From NCBI GenBank assembly GCA_031414955.1, contig JANOQV010000259.1, positions 1-23,198 of the forward strand: a stretch of 23,198 nt of DNA, in the 5' to 3' direction. Below are positions 14,619 through 20,616 of this stretch, one piece after another (the stretch's first letter is position 1; every line of letters starts with the position of its first letter). Made by a program: the position numbers and the translations under genes. The stretch comes from Pedosphaera sp. GTDB taxonomy: Bacteria; Verrucomicrobiota; Verrucomicrobiia; Limisphaerales; SIBH01. The notes under the pieces were generated by a model. That model was not told the origin of the DNA. It did not search any database and worked only from the letters and a program-made list of their open reading frames with translations.

Positions 14619-16844
14619 CTACCGCGCCGCATCTGTCAGCCGCGCCGCGTAAACTTTCCGCGCGTGTTCGTAGGCGGCTCGGGCGTCCTCCATCTCGGCC
14701 GGCTTGTAGGTGCGCTGCTTCTGGCCCCAGCACACGTCCACTCCCTTGAGGCACCACTCGATGCTCTGGCGCTCGCGCACAGGCTTGCCCTCCACCGTGA
14801 CCCAGATCGGATTACTGTGGGAGGTGGGGAAGATGCGCAGCGCCACCCAACTGCTACGGTCGATCTTCGCCTCGAAGGTCACGTCGCGCATTTTGCCGTC
14901 GGCCACGAATTCCTGCCTGGCCACGGACTGGCCGTTGACGATCAGTTCGATGGGCACGGTCTTGGTCTCACCAATGCGCGCTTTCTCGATCTGCCAGGTG
15001 AAACGATTCTTCGCCACCGTGTTGATTATGTCATCAAGCATTGCGGCGACTTTCGCCGTGGCCCGAATCGTCGTGGGTTTGTCCACCCGGAGTTCGCTGC
15101 CGTTCTCGCCCACCGCCGCGTCGTTCACCTTGAAGTCGATGAGATGGCTGTAGCCGTCGCTGACGTAAGTGCGGCCGAGGCGGACACCTTCGCACCAGTC
15201 GTCGTAGGTGAGCTTGCCGTCGAGTTTCACGTAGCTGCGCCCGAGACCGACGCGATCGCCATAGATGCACGGGAAATCTGTTTCGCCGCTGGCCCGGATG
15301 CGGAAGCCGACGTTCAAGCTGTGATACCACATGGTCAATTCTGCGGTCGGATCGGTATCGACGGTCGAAATGAAATCAACGGCCGGCACCAGCTTGCCGT
15401 CCGGCCCGGGCACGTCGTGGGTGATGTCCACGATGAACTCATTCGCGCCGATGCCGTCGTAGCGCGGCTGCTGGTAGCCCAGTGTTTCACCACGCGGCAC
15501 TTGAATGCCATTGCCGGAATGCGCCGGGCCGGTCACCGCGCCCTGCTTCTTCGCCCATTTAAGCGTGTTCAGCCCGAGCGTCGGCCAGTGATCCTTCGAG
15601 ACACCGCCGGGATACATCTGTTCCTTGAGCCGCAGCAGCACAAGGTGCCCGCTTTGGTGCGAACCGAACCCGCTCACTTCGATGTCGTAGCGCAGCAGGT
15701 AGGGATATTGCGAAACCTTGTCCACCGCGCCGCAGAAAAACTGCTTCTGAAAATCAAAACACGGCCCCCAGGTCAGGTTCGCGCCGATCTTCAAGTCTTC
15801 GCCCTTGCAGTGGCGGAACATGTCTTCGGCAAACACGCCTTCGGTCGGCTTCACGTAATGAGCGCAGCCCGCCGCGTGAATGTGATGGTCGCCCGACCAC
15901 CAGCCGAACTTCGCCGGGTCCACCCAACGGTCGGTCTTGAAGGACAGCTCCTTCGTGGCGGCGATGATGGCGTGCGAAGATTTCTTCACGATCGATTCCG
16001 GCCCGCGCGAAAGCTCCACCGTGTAACGGCCCGCCGGCAATTTCATTTTCTCGCCGTCGCCGCGATAAACCTGATCGTGGAACGCAAAGTCCGGAGCCAG
16101 GCGCTTGCTCCGCGCCGGGTAAACGCGGTTCTGCTGATCACGAATGACGAACGCCGCGATGGTCGGCTCGTTGCTGTCGTCGCGCACACGCAGCGTGACC
16201 TCCTGCGCCGGGCGCGCGGTGAACAGCACATCCACCTCGTTGCGATAGCCGATGTCCTGCGTCCCCTGCCCCACGTTGAAGGAGAACTTGCCTTCGCGCT
16301 TCCCTGCGTCGCGGCTGTAAAGCTGGATGATGCGATATTCGACCGCCAGGCCACCGAGTGTGGCGCTCATCGGCTGCGCATCGAACATGGCGAGATCTAG
16401 CCAGCGATTGGCCACGTCCTCGGCGGGAGAATTGAAGAGCCGCTGCGCATTCGGGCTTACAGCTTTTAGTGGCGCGGTCGTGCCGGATTCGTTCGCCACC
16501 TTGACCAGGAACACGCGCCAGCCCGATTCGTCCAGTTCTGGCTTGGCCTCACCCACCGCGACCTTCACCCGCATCTCGGGATTGATGCTCACGCCGAACA
16601 GCACATGCCGGTCGAGCACCGTCTGGATTTGCTGGCTGGCTTCGGCAGCGGGCAAGGCGGGCGCGTCCCTGAGTTGCTTCAACTCGGCGTCGCTCAATGG
16701 CGTGCCCAGATAAGCCAGCGCGTCGGTGACACGCGTGACTTGCGCCGCCAGCGGCTGCACTTCGACATTGGGAACGATGGGGAAGGATGCCGCAGTGGCA
16801 GCCAGCCCCAACAAGCACAGCAAGACGACAATGAGTTGGCGCAT
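14619..16844 (-). CDS. CehA/McbA family metallohydrolase (PHP-like), secreted
   Basis: GWWSGDHHIH, GHLVLL, GPAHSG, ASGETDFPC, SHSNPIW; signal peptide MRQLIVVLLCLLGLAATAA from ATG 16844. Confidence 0.85.
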   Translation of the reverse strand: MRQLIVVLLCLLGLAATAASFPIVPNVEVQPLAAQVTRVTDALAYLGTPLSDAELKQLRDAPALPAAEASQQIQTVLDRHVLFGVSINPEMRVKVAVGEAKPELDESGWRVFLVKVANESGTTAPLKAVSPNAQRLFNSPAEDVANRWLDLAMFDAQPMSATLGGLAVEYRIIQLYSRDAGKREGKFSFNVGQGTQDIGYRNEVDVLFTARPAQEVTLRVRDDSNEPTIAAFVIRDQQNRVYPARSKRLAPDFAFHDQVYRGDGEKMKLPAGRYTVELSRGPESIVKKSSHAIIAATKELSFKTDRWVDPAKFGWWSGDHHIHAAGCAHYVKPTEGVFAEDMFRHCKGEDLKIGANLTWGPCFDFQKQFFCGAVDKVSQYPYLLRYDIEVSGFGSHQSGHLVLLRLKEQMYPGGVSKDHWPTLGLNTLKWAKKQGAVTGPAHSGNGIQVPRGETLGYQQPRYDGIGANEFIVDITHDVPGPDGKLVPAVDFISTVDTDPTAELTMWYHSLNVGFRIRASGETDFPCIYGDRVGLGRSYVKLDGKLTYDDWCEGVRLGRTYVSDGYSHLIDFKVNDAAVGENGSELRVDKPTTIRATAKVAAMLDDIINTVAKNRFTWQIEKARIGETKTVPIELIVNGQSVARQEFVADGKMRDVTFEAKIDRSSWVALRIFPTSHSNPIWVTVEGKPVRERQSIEWCLKGVDVCWGQKQRTYKPAEMEDARAAYEHARKVYAARLTDAAR

Positions 16845-16914
16845 AATTCCTTTCGGGTGATTGCGGCGGATGATAGCGGGCGGCACGCAGAGGGGAAGCG
16901 CGATTCTCTGGAAC

Positions 16915-17014
16915 GACGACACTGGAAAGTGTCGTCACCTGCCGACAAGAATGTCGGCGCTACAAACGTAACGCCGGCTTTCCAGCCGGCAGGTGGCGAG
17001 ACTTTCCAGTCTCG
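16915..17014. repeat. REP/BIME-like cluster: two back-to-back GTAG/GTAA-led units, each with two hairpins
   Basis: Minus-strand unit GTAGCGCCGACATTCTTGTCGGC-AGGT-GACGACACTTTCCAGTGTCGTC; plus-strand unit GTAACGCCGGCTTTCCAGCCGGC-AGGT-GGCGAGACTTTCCAGTCTCG. They are separated by AAAC; 16921-16944 is inverted to 16987-17010 with 2 mismatches. Confidence 0.8.
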
Positions 17015-17106
17015 TGTCGGTGGCTCCTCGAAGCCGCACCCTCTCACAATTCACAGCCAACTCCCGCATTGCGCCACCGAATCCTTTCCCCCAAATTCCG
17101 CGCCCT

Positions 17107-20100
17107 ATGTCGAGCCGGAAGCAGTATCCGTTCAATCTCATCGAGCCGAAGTGGCAGCAGTTCTGGGAGGAACAGCAGTCCTTCCGCGCGTTCAATCCCG
17201 GCGAAGTGCTGCCGGCGGAACATCCCTTCGCGCAACGTCACGGACTTGCGGGCAAGAAAGTTTCCGCCGCCGATTTGCCGCCGAAGTTCTATGTGCTCGA
17301 CATGTTCCCCTACCCTTCCGGCGCGGGACTGCACGTCGGGCATCCCGAAGGCTACACGGCCACGGACATTCTCGCGCGCTACAAGCGCGCCGCTGGTTCG
17401 CATGTGCTGCATCCGATGGGCTGGGACGCCTTCGGCCTGCCCGCCGAGCAATACGCCATCAAGACCGGCCAGCATCCGCGCGCGACGACCGAGGCGAACA
17501 TCGCGAACTTCACCAAGCAGATCAAAAGCCTCGGCTTCAGCTACGACTGGTCGCGCGAGGTGGACACCACCGATCCGAAATACTTCCGCTGGACGCAGTG
17601 GATTTTCCTGAAGCTCTACAACTCGTGGTTCAACCCGGAGACGAACAAGGCCGAGCCGATTGAGACCCTGAAGTTTCCAGGGGAGCTGGAATTGCCGGGC
17701 GCACAGGTAGGGCGCGGTGTCCTCACCGCGCCGCGCCTCGAATCGGAGGAGCGCCCCGGAACTGCCAACGCCTCACCCCGGCGCGCTGAGACAGCGACGC
17801 CCTACCAACTCGAAGACAAACGCCGCGCCTATCGCGACTCCAAGCGTCTCGCGTTCAGCAGCGAAGCCCCAGTGAACTGGTGTCCGGAACTCGGCACCGT
17901 GCTGGCCAACGAGGAAGTCATCGACGGCAAGAGCGAAGTGGGCGGCTTCCCCGTGGTGCGCCGGCCCATGCGCCAATGGATGCTCCGCATCACCGCCTAC
18001 GCCGAGAAACTGCTCGACGATCTCAACACGATCGACTGGAGCGACTCGCTCAAGGAGATGCAGCGGAACTGGATTGGGAAGAGCGAAGGGGCGGAGGTGG
18101 ATTTTCAGATTGGTGGCCGTGCGGACAAGATTCGCGTTTTCACGACGCGCCCCGATACGCTGTTCGGTGCGACCTACATGGTGTTGTCGCCGGAGCACAA
18201 GTTGGTCGCGGAAATCACGACGGCCGAGCAGCGCGAAGCCGTGAAGCAGTATCAGCAGTTCGCCGCCGGCAAGAGCGATCTCGAACGCACGGAACTCGCG
18301 AAGGAGAAGACCGGTGTCTTCACCGGTTCGTATGCCATCAATCCGGTGAACGGGGAGAAGATGCCCATCTGGATAGCTGACTACGTGCTCGCGAGCTACG
18401 GCACAGGTGCGATCATGGCAGTTCCATCTCATGATGCGCGCGACATGGAGTTCGCGCTCAAGTTCGACATCACAACTCAGAACGTGGTGCTGCCGCCAGA
18501 CGCTTGGTTGCGCGAGCGAGTGAGTTCCACTTTTGCAGATAAGACGATTGAAGAAATCCGCGACGTTTACAAAACCACGAATGCCTACTTCGGACAGGAA
18601 GCATTCTGTGAAACTGGAACTGCGATCAATTCAGCCAATCCTGAAATCTCCCTCAACGGCCTCCCTACCGCCGAAGCCAAAGCGAAAATCACCGCCTGGC
18701 TCGAAGCGAAGAGCCTCGGCAAGAAGACCATCAACTACAAGCTGCGCGACTGGCTCTTCAGCCGGCAGCGTTACTGGGGCGAGCCGTTCCCCATCGTGTG
18801 GAAGAAGGACGCGAATGGGAACGCGTATCACGAGGCGCTGCCGGAGAGCGCGCTGCCGTTGCTGCCGCCCGCGCTGGACGATTACAAGCCCACGCCCGAC
18901 GGCCAACCGCCGCTCGCCCGCGCGCAGGACTGGGTGAACCGGCCCGACGGCTCCGTGCGCGAAACGAACACCATGCCGCAGTGGGCGGGCAGTTGCTGGT
19001 ATTACCTGCGCTATCTCGATGCGGGGAATGATGGCACCTTTTGTTCCGCCGAGGCTGAGGAGTATTGGATGGGCGCGCCAAGCGTCGCGCAACTCGGTTT
19101 CCACGAGTGGCAGACGCGGCTCAAGGCGCTTTATGCCTTCGCTCTTAACAATCCGGAGAACCGGAAGGATTTCGTCAGCTACGACGTGGTCAGCCCGGCG
19201 GAAGCGGATTTTCTCGCCGGGAAAACAGGGCTGCATCTCGCAGGATACCGGCGGATGATCGACAACTTTGCCATCCGTCACGTCATGAACCAGCATGGTG
19301 ATGCGGAGAAGGAGCGCCAGCGCGGGCTGCTCCCAGTCAGCTTTGATGACCTGCTCCAGATTCCAGCCATCATCCACTCGGCGGATGAAGTGCGCTCCGG
19401 CGGCAAGACCGCAACGAACCTGGATCTGATCCTCTACACAAAGCGCGTTAATGGATGGCTGTACTATTTCGAAGAAGTACGGACGGCGAATGATTTGTTG
19501 GCGGCCAAGACGTTGTACAAAAAACCGGCGACGGCGAGTCATGCCGGTGAAGGCCTTGCTCAAACGCCCGAAGCGCTCCGTCGCACTGGGGAGAATCTAG
19601 CGAACACAGGGCCGCGTGGCAAGGTCACGCCCGGCGTGGACCTCTACGTTGGCGGCACCGAGCACGCCGTGCTGCACCTGCTCTACGCGCGCTTCTGGCA
19701 CAAGGTGCTGTTCGACCTCGGCTATGTCTCCACGCCCGAGCCGTTCTTCAAGCTCGTGAACCAGGGACTCATCCTCGGCGAGGACGGCCAGAAGATGTCC
19801 AAGTCGCGCGGCAACACGGTCAACCCCGACGACATCCTCGTGGAATTCGGCGCGGATGCCTTCCGCCTTTACGAAATGTTCATGGGGCCGCTGGAGATGG
19901 TGAAGCCGTGGAACACGAAGGGCGTGGAAGGCGTGTATCGTTTCCTCGGCCGCGTCTGGCGTTTGTTCGTCGATGAAGCGAGCGAGACGGAGTTCGAGCA
20001 GACGCAGACCGCCACCGATCCGGCGCAGCAGCGCGAGTTGCTGAAGTTGATCAAGCTCCACGCCGGCATCAAGGACGCCGAGGCGACGAAGGAACAGCTC

Positions 20101-20616
20101 AAGGCACTGCACGCCTGCATCAAGAAGGTGACGGAAGATCTCGACGGCCTGCGCTTCAACACCGCCATCTCGGCCATGATGGTCTTCGCCAACGACGCCA
20201 TGAACTGGGAAACGAAGCCGGTCTCCGTGCTGCGCGAGTTCCTGATTCTGCTCCAGCCTTTCGCCCCGCACATCGCGGAGGAGTTGTGGGAGAAATTGTC
20301 CAAAGTCCAAAGTACAAAGTCCAAAGTCACGGACGACGGTGCGGCGACCTTGGACCTTGGACTTTGGACTTTGGACTTGTCCTACCAGCCCTGGCCGAAG
20401 CATGACCCCGCCCTGCTCGTCGAAGACACGCTGGAGATTCCCGTGCAGGTGAACGGCAAGCTCCGCGACGTAATCCGCGTGGCGGCGACGGCAACGCAGC
20501 CGGAGATCGAAGCCCTCGCGCTCGCTTCGGAGAAGGCGCAGCAGTTCATGGGCGGCAAGGCGGTGAAGAAAATCATCGTGGTACCCAAGAAGCTGGTGAA
20601 CATCGTGGTGACCTGA
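17107..20616 (+). CDS. leuS: Leucine--tRNA ligase (1169 aa) with multiple in-frame insertions
   Basis: [18 protein letters not shown] (HIGH), [14 protein letters not shown]1 editing motifs FTTRPDT and [60 protein letters not shown] at 17107. Confidence 0.97.
17706..17806. repeat. GTAG-type REP doublet inserted in frame within leuS
   Basis: GGTAGGGCGCGGTGTCCTCACCGCGCCG...CGGCGCGCTGAGACAGCGACGCCCTACC; terminal inverted GGTAGGGCG/CGCCCTACC; GTAG to CTAC spans 99 bp (33 codons). Confidence 0.82.
19525..19589. ncRNA. Candidate structured RNA element at the 3' end of the inserted nuclease domain
   Basis: Closing stem GCGACGG (19528-34) / CCGTCGC (19578-84) encloses GAGT-CAT-GCC-ggtgaa-GGC-CTT-GCTC and a CGC-ccgaa-GCG hairpin, a possible three-way junction. 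Folded by eye only. Confidence 0.4.
19594..19622 (-). promoter_or_regulatory. Putative antisense sigma70 promoter inside leuS at the right boundary of the nuclease insert
   Basis: The minus strand reads TTGCCA-N17-TAGATT (-35 at 19622-19617, -10 at 19599-19594), pointing into the structured element. Confidence 0.5.
20298..20376. repeat. Inverted heptamer tandem repeats forming a long hairpin, in frame in leuS
   Basis: (GTCCAAA)x4 (one copy GTACAAA) + GTC, a 17-nt loop, then GAC + (C/TTTGGAC)x4; translates as [26 protein letters not shown]. Confidence 0.88.

Follow-up and report, generated by a model that had tools for sequence, protein, structure and literature searches.

What is a run of 188 extra codons doing inside the catalytic body of a leucyl-tRNA synthetase (LeuRS), and where could it have come from? 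The question is posed by leuS in a stretch of 23,198 nucleotides of Pedosphaera sp. DNA, the whole of which is referred to here as the window. A first-pass annotation, made from the letters alone, had proposed that a toxin-like PBECR nuclease domain is inserted there in frame.

The LeuRS host gene and its insertion site

The host protein carries every hallmark of a bacterial LeuRS, namely the equivalog score, the HIGH-type and KMSKS motifs, and the CP1 editing and anticodon-binding domains. It scores 922.7 bits against TIGR00396 (bacterial leucyl-tRNA synthetase equivalog; cut-off 548.4), Pfam recovers the editing domain PF13603 (E 4.4e-61) and the anticodon-binding domain PF08264 (E 9.3e-18), and HVGH and KMSKS are both present in the translation. 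The open frame extends from 16993 to 20616 on the forward strand, and ORF reading with translation places the likely start at 17107, giving a protein of 1169 residues (Table 1). The segment preceding KMSKS is short and lacks a leucine-specific domain. No other leuS was found in its own assembly, which is 95.9% complete (one full match), and searches of 15 more cassette genomes with the C-terminal flank as query likewise gave a single leuS in 14. A second, cassette-free leuS in genome G131 and a second leuS fragment in genome G012 mean that the host gene is not always without backup. The gene is flanked by a 767-residue protein with no Pfam match and by a PD40/Ig-repeat protein, both on the opposite strand. 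Housekeeping genes surround it, phage and plasmid genes are absent from the neighbourhood, and no immunity gene was seen among the flanking genes. The same leuS carries two separate in-frame features, a MITE-like element (arms 17706-17733 and 17779-17806; 54 matches in its own genome) and a hairpin repeat.

Table 1. Features of leuS and its PBECR3 cassette in the window (aa, amino acids)
Feature	Position	Strand	Evidence
leuS, leucyl-tRNA synthetase, 1169 aa + stop	17107..20616	+	TIGR00396, Pfam, own-genome search
MITE-like repeat, 101 nt, 28-nt inverted ends, in frame (LeuRS aa ~200-234)	17706..17806	+	
Upstream junction YWM, final LeuRS residues before the insert	19063..19071	+	conserved in all LeuRS loci read
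PBECR3 cassette, in-frame insert, 188 codons	19072..19635	+	translation, Pfam, homologue search
N-terminal linker, insert aa 1-9, no secondary structure	19072..19098	+	first 10-residue block mean pLDDT 75; DSSP
N-terminal extension: helix 10-26, strand 34-39, helix 42-52, strand 60-64	19099..19263	+	pLDDT 94-98
BECR core: two-His helix, then four strands	19264..19527	+	Pfam, alignment, AF2, fold matches
Invariant His H70 and H75 (LeuRS H725 and H730), helix of core	19279-19281; 19294-19296	+	
Last core strand: T147 and K150	19510-19512; 19519-19521	+	
C-terminal tail/tether, insert aa 155-188	19534..19635	+	low confidence, pLDDT 58-64
Downstream junction, 10-residue motif on Rossmann-fold strand, LeuRS resumes	19636..19665	+	translation, loci, 3ziu
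Heptamer-repeat hairpin, 42-nt arms 81% complementary, in frame near LeuRS C-terminus	20287..20387	+	

As the first-pass annotation had described, leuS stays open through 188 additional codons after YWM: the translated insert is stop-free and lies exactly between EEYWM (residues 651-655) and the downstream motif VDLYVGGxEH (residues 844-853), beginning with Gly-Ala-Pro and finishing with Thr-Pro-Gly ahead of Val. The spacing of about one residue that had been taken as normal is too tight for this lineage, since 23 of the 29 LeuRS loci with both flanking motifs have 8-46 mostly low-complexity residues at the site and the solved Mycoplasma-type LeuRS 3ziu has ~10 residues between the two aligned flanks. 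The long form, of 182-196 residues, occupies the site at six of those 29 loci, window included, and ten more long-frame LeuRS genes of the order have short loops only. The extra domain amounts to ~150-180 residues beyond the normal loop, which we take to lie at the N-terminal end of the Rossmann-fold strand, on the side opposite the active site. In cassette-free relatives this loop also hosts short repeat-like peptides. The suggestion that alternative cargo might occupy the same site was not borne out in the 33 cassette-free loops read. The preference of the insert for A/T-ending codons is real, with GC3 at 0.70 as against 0.82 in the rest of leuS, but it is not unique, because leuS codons ~320-420 are equally low (0.69-0.71).

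The earlier worry about misassembly at the junctions is dispelled by single Logan contigs from two runs of one study, possibly of the source sample, which span 18964-19680 and 18982-19680 with no differences and bridge both junctions. The same architecture recurs in 19 further genomes and ten metagenome proteins. Contig joints that skip ~600 bases over the insert were considered as empty alleles and rejected, as their intervening content is not given. In the one metatranscriptome searched, cover fell on the conserved flanks only, probably from other organisms, and none over the insert.

Several classes of mobile or removable element were tested and excluded. Inteins start with Cys, Ser or Thr and end in His-Asn followed by Cys, Ser or Thr. 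The insert has no Hint or intein match in Pfam at E <= 1, and its ends (Gly...Pro-Gly, then Val) are without splicing residues. Rfam gave no match over leuS at E <= 0.1, and no intron. These results uphold the earlier reading that the domain should stay in the protein. It is not a transposable element, as repeats are only 10-18 nt long at 72-91% identity, none lies at the junctions and the genome has one PBECR3 copy. Nor is it a polymorphic toxin or toxin-antitoxin module, in which the toxin is C-terminal in a delivery protein or is a small gene of its own beside an immunity or antitoxin gene; here the domain is internal and the flanking genes lie on the other strand with no immunity gene seen. 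A polyvalent protein of a phage or conjugative element, that is large, injected and joins PBECR to domains such as MPTase, ART, DarA-N and lysozyme, is excluded by the host protein, which is LeuRS, and by its housekeeping neighbours.

Identity and conservation of the inserted domain

PBECR3 is a colicin-like domain of the BECR fold, predicted to be a metal-independent RNase, which otherwise occurs in proteins injected by phages and conjugative elements. Residues 43-153 of the insert match the corresponding Pfam family PF18812 at E 3.5e-19 and 69.3 bits (cut-off 30), covering profile positions 6-110 of 115, and a genome scan with PBECR3 returned a single copy at 70.3 bits, with no match in any of 14 control genomes. 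The AlphaFold (AF2) model of the insert (pLDDT 90.3) has the layout of a BECR core, with a helix at 65-75 and strands at 106-112, 118-126, 129-137 and 142-152; the definition of the core as a helix plus four strands follows the available part of PMC5512222. When 48,161 chains were compared with the model, the three ranking highest were BECR RNase toxins, namely BrnT 3u97 (Z 6.3), 7vd7 (Z 5.8) and 5i4q (Z 5.7; the CdiA-CT of an EF-Tu complex, 88 residues aligned), and RelE and colicin D (5znm, Z 4.3) rank next, all with Z below 8. The family assignment of the first-pass annotation was correct, and the insert is, as judged from its sequence and model, a complete PBECR3 module with a BECR fold. 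The N-terminal extension that precedes the core is common to the copies in polyvalent proteins, where matches begin at about query residue 12-30, and the C-terminal tail holds a T-S/P-E motif that those copies also have.

Other searches with the insert were less informative. Foldseek against the PDB with the insert model found nothing at E <= 0.001, the domain profile matched no sequence of a solved structure at E <= 1, NCBIfam and the PADLOC models gave no match, and PHROGs returned weak matches only (best E 6.2e-4), all of them to families without an assigned function. The AlphaFold model of the full-length 1169-residue LeuRS is poor (mean pLDDT 54.1, pTM 0.40, 21-row alignment); within it the PBECR3 core alone reaches pLDDT 79-91, and the domain is not placed relative to tRNA.

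The active-site residues are strongly conserved. In all 28 LeuRS-borne copies D719, H725, H730, E736, G740, L798 and T802 are kept, and each of K779, E789, E790, P753, D760 and G783 is retained by 27 copies. Across 162 copies outside LeuRS, the polar and proline residues among these are 86-100% conserved, T802 is present in 75% (Ser in another 23%) and G783 in 79%. A histidine in the helix together with Thr or Ser in the last strand is the PBECR pattern according to the available part of PMC5512222, and H725, H730 and T802 provide it in 28 of 28 LeuRS-borne copies. Three other positions are well conserved elsewhere but changed within LeuRS: of the 28 copies, 7 retain D710, 10 retain Q741, and 14 have Arg in place of H716. 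To judge from the sequences, these changes may have weakened or retargeted the activity, which for the PBECR3 family as a whole is itself a prediction of endoribonuclease function in that part of PMC5512222.

Substitution patterns tell the same regions of the gene apart. The core has dN/dS of 0.13-0.46 in 10 of 14 pairs (three pairs have saturated dS, and a near-identical pair gives 1.04 at a dS of 0.009), the LeuRS flanks 0.06-0.18 in 13 of 14 pairs and the cassette tail a near-neutral 0.47-1.10 in 13 of 14, the near-identical pair not being computable. By this estimate the core of the LeuRS-borne PBECR3 is under purifying selection.

Distribution, origin and exchange of the cassette

Within the order, 22 of 401 genomes match the insert, 20 of them within LeuRS at one site (two of these cut by contig ends), so that, in line with the patchiness proposed at first, this is not a universal LeuRS domain of the lineage. 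In the rest of the phylum sample, one of 400 other genomes matches, outside LeuRS. Among the genomes and metagenome proteins searched, no housekeeping gene other than leuS was seen to contain PBECR3. A search for relatives with the single insert sequence found nothing, and a five-row alignment of close cassettes retrieved six MAG records titled Verrucomicrobiota, Verrucomicrobiia, Spartobacteria or bacterium.

Relatives outside LeuRS suggest where the cassette came from. In all, 1818 library representatives match the insert. PBECR3 was detected in 27 of the 27 nearest non-LeuRS proteins scanned and further Pfam domains in 12 of them, and eight of these 12 multidomain proteins bear polyvalent or phage domains (DarA_N, InPase, ART-PolyVal, PBECR1/2, LPD3, phage lysozyme, Pam3 gp59, Mu-like protease). 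On this sequence relationship, the cassette is regarded as captured from the pool of polyvalent proteins. The 28 LeuRS-borne copies form nearly one clade, with one interloper, and the AU test (p 0.475) does not reject a single clade, which is compatible with one capture followed by evolution inside the LeuRS of one Verrucomicrobiota order.

The cassette and its host gene do not share one history. Three deep cassette types are scattered across the LeuRS tree, and in the tree of LeuRS flanks (36 rows, 14 with the insert) the presence of the insert requires 12 changes, at least five of them forced by well-supported branches. How similar two inserts are does not follow from how similar their flanks are (Spearman 0.09 over 120 non-independent pairs): between genomes G000 and G008 the flanks are 89/86% identical and the inserts 44%, and in close pairs the flank and insert identities are equal (98/98 and 95/97). 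At the DNA level, identity is 90-98% in the flanks as against 53-63% inside the cassette; it follows that the cassette has been exchanged laterally, and two further genera show this mosaic too. Congeners vary in the presence and type of the cassette, about 5% of the genomes of the order carry it, and the cassette together with ~15-25 upstream codons has a history unlike that of the surrounding leuS. These patterns point to lateral exchange via homologous recombination through near-identical leuS flanks, and in sequence terms the cassette acts like an accessory gene, which is swapped, kept or absent among related bacteria.

Proposed function and relation to known systems

We are highly confident of the following joint statement: a complete PBECR3 module of polyvalent origin sits in frame in a surface loop of LeuRS that is hypervariable and tolerates insertions, is retained in the mature enzyme, is under purifying selection with its active-site pattern kept, and is exchanged laterally as an accessory element. 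For what it does, the reading that we favour, as an inference, is a tRNase of conflict origin that is tethered to LeuRS and used conditionally. We hold it slightly more probable than not that the insert is an active RNase. It would be held by LeuRS on a flexible tether beside bound RNA, and its likeliest substrate would be tRNA-Leu, because LeuRS would tether the domain next to the RNA that it binds. Activity would be conditional, with tRNA being cleaved against phages or mobile elements, and such a conditional conflict role would account for the optional presence, the diversification and the exchange of the cassette. Several points weigh against this account: without regulation, a tRNase on the sole LeuRS is expected to be harmful, and no immunity gene was seen beside leuS; the fold matches have Z below 8; the PADLOC models do not match; D710, Q741 and H716 are changed in many LeuRS copies; the loop would lie on the side opposite the active site; and a second leuS or leuS fragment occurs in G131 and G012. 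We regard the whole account, from the inserted module to a working tethered RNase, a tRNA-Leu target and a conditional conflict role, as evenly balanced between right and wrong, and a defence or conflict role taken by itself as possible though rather less than probable. It is conceivable, but in our judgement doubtful, that LeuRS acts as the scaffold of a latent phage-derived tRNase and brings it its substrate, making a defence or conflict module without a gene of its own, whose three ancient types and empty alleles are maintained by balancing selection together with lateral exchange via the conserved leuS flanks, and which upon a trigger would cut tRNA-Leu and stop translation.

Other readings have to be weighed against this one. 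The first-pass annotation had left the function open between a selfish element, an anti-phage or tRNA quality-control effector and an inactive domesticated domain; the last is argued against by the active-site pattern in 28 of 28 copies, and a fixed housekeeping role by the patchy presence and lateral exchange. A selfish, homing-like passenger would bring no benefit to its host, would spread among leuS alleles with its nuclease aiding that spread and would persist in a tolerant loop of an undeletable gene. The constant site, the variable presence within genera, the co-travelling upstream codons, which resemble co-conversion tracts, a loop that tolerates other junk (the short repeat-like peptides) and a leuS that also bears the MITE-like element and the hairpin repeat in frame all agree with such a passenger. 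However, BECR enzymes are metal-independent RNases in the available part of PMC5512222, and cleavage of an empty DNA site is implausible because their chemistry requires a 2'-OH. The cassette also lacks terminal inverted repeats or hairpins, is present once in its own genome and in none of the other housekeeping genes searched, and its active site, which in the absence of drive should decay over the 25-50% identity range, has not done so. We consider a selfish passenger unlikely.

Quite unlikely, too, is a domesticated, non-cutting RNA-binding module that helps a LeuRS without a leucine-specific domain before KMSKS to hold tRNA-Leu or to tell it apart. The window LeuRS does run directly into KMSKS, D710 and Q741 are mostly lost although well conserved elsewhere, and an RNA-binding role has been proposed for an inactive PBECR in the MuF protein of phage Mu (PMC5512222, available part). 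Yet the cassette-free relatives share the short segment before KMSKS and manage without the domain, as does ~95% of the order; the two His, the Thr, the Lys and the Glu-Glu pair are kept in 27-28 of 28 copies; and swaps of deep types between close leuS alleles are unexpected for a tuned housekeeping part. The host PBECR3 might instead be a decoy or shield, protecting translation by competing with injected phage PBECR3 for its RNA site or by soaking up a phage factor. Derivation from the pool of injected effectors and a patchy, diversified pattern as in an arms race would suit this reading, but a decoy has no need of the full catalytic set, and LeuRS as the carrier is unexplained unless the effectors target tRNA-Leu, so we hold it very improbable. 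Hardly credible is an artefact or removable element (misassembly, intein or intron) that would leave mature LeuRS without the domain: the lower GC3 of the insert is all that speaks for it, and it is countered by the junction-bridging contigs of both runs, the recurrence in other genomes and metagenome proteins, purifying selection at the protein level, boundary residues unlike those of inteins and the lack of Hint, intein or Rfam intron matches.

If the tethered RNase is active, the cassette would be a natural case of a synthetase delivering a tRNase to its substrate, and it would hint at defence functions, possibly a whole class of them, inside housekeeping genes, invisible to screens that rely on gene neighbourhoods and defence islands. 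If it is inert, it still illustrates clearly the tolerance of this LeuRS loop. The cassette also shows that a core translation gene can hold a within-genus structural polymorphism maintained by recombination, and the LeuRS host offers a tractable handle on the PBECR3 family, because the host protein suggests a likely substrate. RNases of conflict systems have been described among secreted toxins, among the toxins of toxin-antitoxin pairs and among the effectors that phages inject, and synthetases are known to gain accessory domains. A toxin-type RNase domain with an intact pattern, exchangeable and lodged in the catalytic body of the sole LeuRS, joins the two. We found no description of a LeuRS-borne PBECR3 cassette in the literature searched, and in the main text of PMC5512222, as far as available, one of the two mentions of 'synthetase' concerns nonribosomal peptide and polyketide synthetases.

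Known systems resemble the LeuRS cassette in part.
Inteins and homing endonucleases in essential genes are in-frame nuclease inserts at one conserved site, with patchy presence and co-variation of the flanks. The cassette resembles them in occupying one site of an essential gene, in its patchiness and in its co-varying flanks, and differs in having no Hint domain, an RNase fold in place of a DNA endonuclease fold, and retention in the protein. PrrC and RloC are latent anticodon nucleases of the host that cut its own tRNA during infection, as separate proteins restrained by partners; the logic that we propose for the cassette is the same, whereas the folds are different and the PADLOC models do not match. 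A closer parallel in fold may be drawn with the CdiA-CT tRNases that need EF-Tu/EF-Ts (E. coli NC101, 5i4q; EC869, PMC9071432, available part), in which a BECR-type RNase reaches tRNA via a tRNA-binding translation protein, as proposed for LeuRS. Those toxins are secreted, come with immunity proteins and bind their helper non-covalently in the victim cell, whereas the predicted RNase of the cassette lies covalently inside a tRNA-binding enzyme of its own cell, with no immunity gene seen nearby. The accessible part of a recent preprint (bioRxiv 10.64898/2026.08.28.747851) places PBECR3 with colicins D and E5 in a 'colicin-like' BECR group and states that the members characterised so far mostly cleave tRNAs, with specificity for isoacceptors. 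The fold matches of the insert include colicin D, yet there is no sequence-level match to any solved chain. The closest relatives are the PBECR3 domains of the polyvalent proteins of phages and conjugative elements (Iyer et al. 2017, PMC5512222, available part), with which the cassette shares its HMM family, module length, N-terminal extension, T-S-E tail motif and His/Thr pattern. Those copies reside in giant injected multidomain proteins or in solo phage proteins, whereas the LeuRS-borne copies, which differ at D710 and Q741 in most cases, form a near-exclusive clade of their own inside a chromosomal housekeeping enzyme.

The additional domain of LeuRS and its family

The open frame that contains leuS likely has its start codon at 17107, giving a LeuRS of 1169 aa that matches TIGR00396 at 922.7 bits (cut-off 548.4), carries class I catalytic, CP1 editing (PF13603, E 4.4e-61) and anticodon-binding domains in Pfam, and shows HVGH and KMSKS in translation. 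The first-pass annotation had described a PBECR domain in frame within this enzyme, and our analysis confirms that observation, together with the stated coordinates and length of the anomaly (188 residues after ...EEYWM). Its remark that the bounding motifs, YWM and VDLYVGGxEH, normally lie about one residue apart correctly signalled an extra domain but was too tight for this lineage: among 29 loci of the window and its relatives with both flanking motifs, 23 hold 8-46 residues, mostly low-complexity, at the cassette site. Short loops occur there in all ten further long-frame LeuRS genes of the same order, and about 10 residues separate the aligned flanks in the solved LeuRS 3ziu. The cassette-site loop is hypervariable in this lineage. 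We take it to lie at the N-terminal end of a Rossmann-fold strand, away from the synthetic site; Aquifex LeuRS, presumably split naturally not far from the cassette region, would fit a tolerant site.

Features of leuS and its upstream neighbour in the window
Feature	Coordinates	Strand	Remarks
767-aa protein	14619-16922	-	directly upstream of leuS; no Pfam match at E <= 0.001
Open frame	16993..20616	+	contains leuS
101-nt element, 28-nt inverted ends	17706-17806		in frame, leuS aa ~200-234
In-frame insert, 188 residues	19072-19635	+	directly after ...EEYWM
Insert tail	19534-19635		34 codons
Hairpin built from heptamer repeats (CCAAAGT type); arms of 42 nt, 81% complementary	20287-20387		in frame, leuS aa ~1061-1094

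More A/T-ending codons had also been reported for the insert. Its GC3 is indeed below that of the remaining leuS (0.70 vs 0.82), but leuS codons ~320-420 are equally low. Misassembly at the junctions had been raised as a check, and the insert is bridged with zero differences by single contigs (18964-19680 and 18982-19680) from two sequencing runs that belong to one study and may represent the source sample. Given these contigs, and with no intein family match in Pfam, no intein-like boundary residues and no Rfam match over leuS, an artefact, an intein and an intron are excluded for practical purposes. The expectation that a domain without intein termini stays in the mature protein is thereby upheld, and LeuRS retains a complete PBECR3 module.

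PF18812 (PBECR3) covers insert residues 43-153 (E 3.5e-19, 69.3 bits, cut-off 30); a whole-genome scan found this one copy in the genome itself, and PBECR3 matched in none of the 14 control genomes. At E <= 0.001, a full HMMER search of 1.84 billion representatives recovered 1818 relatives; the best 150 include many proteins of 2000-4500 residues, whose matches run from query residues ~12-30 through ~150-180, beyond the Pfam span, so that all 188 residues form a single module that exceeds the Pfam model in length. PBECR3 is present in each of the 27 nearest non-LeuRS proteins scanned, and 12 of them have further Pfam domains: DarA_N, InPase, ART-PolyVal, RadC, SLT, phage lysozyme, PBECR1/2, LPD3, ParB-HTH, Pam3 gp59 and Mu-like protease. 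Such company is that of the polyvalent proteins reported in Iyer et al. 2017 (PMC5512222).

The AlphaFold model of the insert is confident (pLDDT 90.3, pTM 0.80, 49-row alignment), with a predicted N-terminal helix/strand extension that leads into a helix spanning 65-75 and four strands within 106-152; beyond about residue 155, confidence is low and the chain forms a tail. No solved chain matched the insert by sequence, and Foldseek with the model gave none at E <= 0.001. In an all-against-all structural comparison covering 48,161 chains, BECR RNase toxins led the ranking: BrnT 3u97 at Z 6.3 (76 residues aligned at rmsd 3.0), 7vd7 at Z 5.8, and, at Z 5.7 over 88 aligned residues, the CdiA-CT in complex with EF-Tu (5i4q). 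A further CdiA-CT, RelE and colicin D ranked next. Since the Z values are moderate, the BECR fold call is supported rather than proved; together with the Pfam score, these matches support the earlier assignment to the PBECR3-type BECR nucleases. The preprint 10.64898/2026.08.28.747851 assigns PBECR3 to a colicin-like BECR group whose characterised members mostly cut tRNAs.

Precomputed Pfam tables list PF18812 on some LeuRS proteins. Among the papers searched, we found no mention of LeuRS in those on PBECR3, nor the architecture in those on LeuRS and nuclease insertion, synthetases and BECR, or synthetases and polymorphic toxins, and the supplements of PMC5512222 and 10.64898/2026.08.28.747851 could list one. 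The finding joins two known kinds, a conflict-type RNase domain and a synthetase accessory domain, and its function is predicted.

Carriers and exchange of the cassette

The cassette is LeuRS-specific, optional and laterally exchanged. Among 401 genomes of the order, including the window's own and G316 (flagged unpublished, one cassette-free row), 22 matched the insert at E <= 1e-8, in 20 of them within LeuRS at the same site; contig ends truncate the copies in G338 and G089, and the matches in G108 and G229 are not LeuRS. One of 400 other genomes of the phylum matches, in a 2776-residue non-LeuRS frame. Ten more LeuRS-borne copies occur among metagenome proteins; six related loci come from MAGs of Verrucomicrobiota, Verrucomicrobiia or Spartobacteria, one labelled merely 'bacterium', and no cultured carrier was seen among the carriers found. 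Within one genus, types A and C and a second subtype of A occur alongside eight genomes that lack the cassette.

When 28 LeuRS-borne copies were placed in a tree with 60 others, they clustered with a single interloper, a domain of a 4362-residue protein (P0059), and fell into three deep types (15, 10 and 3 copies). A single clade is not rejected by the AU test (lnL difference 1.29, p 0.475); an initial FastTree of 178 rows placed one pair apart. On a tree of LeuRS flanks (36 rows, 14 with insert), 12 changes are required to explain where the cassette is present, and well-supported branches force at least 5. Carriers cluster no more strongly than under label shuffling, where 392 of 500 shuffles scored as low. 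Identity in the insert does not track identity in the flanks (Spearman 0.09, 120 non-independent pairs): the window and its congener G008 share 44% in the inserts vs 89/86% in the flanks, and G008 and the protein P0010 share 65% and 67%, respectively. Close pairs have similar insert and flank identities (98/98 and 95/97), and faster evolution alone does not account for the insert divergence.

The DNA itself is mosaic. Between the window and G008, codons 515-625 and 843-933 are 90-98% identical, and codons ~640-800 only 53-63%; the same pattern recurs in G346/G393 of one genus (cassette 42-52%, flanks 82-100%) and in G336/G042, and some 15-25 codons 5' of YWM co-vary with cassette type. Patchy presence, uncoupled identities and these mosaics together show that the cassette is laterally replaced and lost, with recombination acting through conserved leuS flanks, while leuS itself is vertically inherited.

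The window's genome has one leuS, as do 14 of 15 other cassette genomes queried with the C-terminal flank. G131 has a cassette-free second leuS (G131:C5, locus L076) directly 3' of a 2-isopropylmalate-synthase-like frame, with no intervening stop and a joint open frame of 1642 residues; its cassette-bearing leuS has one of the most divergent cassettes (HG -> HH). G012 has a second, N-terminal leuS fragment on a different contig. The other genes of the window are ordinary chromosomal ones (PSCyt/PSD1, oxidoreductases, peptidases, epimerase), and no small, co-directional candidate immunity gene adjoins leuS there.

The 101-nt element, with 54 matches elsewhere in its genome (74-100% identity, ~25 near full length), resembles a MITE/REP-type repeat inserted into another variable loop of LeuRS, and the LeuRS alignments of relatives break there (aa ~190-235). 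The heptamer hairpin lies near the LeuRS C-terminus, where the full-length model is of low confidence. Cassette-site fillers of cassette-free relatives (L015-L042, L066-L075) often resemble translated palindromic repeats (FKVQSS...LNLEPRTLN, GRESRVESRV...STLDPRPST, HEADTAASANPPPHVGGY), so this loop seems to serve the order as a general landing site for small repeats. In the LeuRS of G042 and G101, alignment of the C-terminal flank is split in two, ~50 additional residues following ...KLVNQG; this suggests an insertion at the leucine-specific-domain position of both these cassette-bearing enzymes.

Active site, selection and proposed role

Nearly invariant in 162 non-LeuRS copies are D719, H725, H730, G731, E736, G740, D748, P753, D760, K779, E789, E790, R792 and K805 (LeuRS numbering). 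All 28 LeuRS-borne copies keep D719, H725, H730, E736, G740, L798 and T802; K779, E789, E790, P753, D760 and G783 are kept in 27, D748 in 26 and R739 in 24. The PBECR active-site pattern, given in PMC5512222 as an N-terminal-helix His and a last-strand Thr/Ser, is conserved. The LeuRS-borne copies depart from the family at D710 (kept in 7 of 28), Q741 (10 of 28) and H716 (Arg in 14 of 28), so the specificity or strength of the predicted RNase may differ.

Pairwise comparison puts core dN/dS at 0.13-0.46 for 10 of 14 pairs; dS was saturated in three, and the near-identical pair G012/G013 gave a value of 1.04 at dS 0.009. The ratio is 0.06-0.18 for the flanks and 0.47-1.10 for the insert tail, each in 13 of 14 pairs. 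By these ratios the folded core is under purifying selection within LeuRS, and the tail acts like a linker. Tail dS (0.33-0.69 in 13 pairs) is below core dS (1.06-2.2 for the 10 of those 13 pairs that allowed a value) and, between the window's genome and G008, equals that of the flanks (0.33 vs 0.31). A recombination breakpoint may thus separate core from tail; the sample, 34 codons, is small.

We propose that the domain would be a working RNase on a short N-terminal linker and a ~35-residue C-terminal tether. LeuRS would concentrate tRNA-Leu locally, making it the likeliest substrate. A selfish, homing-like passenger would account for the single site, the patchiness and the co-variation of the flank, but seems unlikely: BECR chemistry acts on RNA and so provides no mechanism for it, it leaves the preserved active site unexplained, and the cassette has no second copy and no element ends, neither terminal inverted repeats nor hairpins having been found there. 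The changes at D710 and Q741 would suit a non-catalytic RNA-binding helper, an unlikely reading at odds with absence from 95% of the order and with the swapping of cassettes. A decoy role against injected PBECR3 effectors, though possible, has no support.

The optional, diversified and exchanged pattern would be easier to square with a role in conflict or defence than with housekeeping. For a tethered RNase supplied with tRNA-Leu by LeuRS, a parallel is offered by the EF-Tu-dependent CdiA-CT tRNases (5i4q; PMC9071432).
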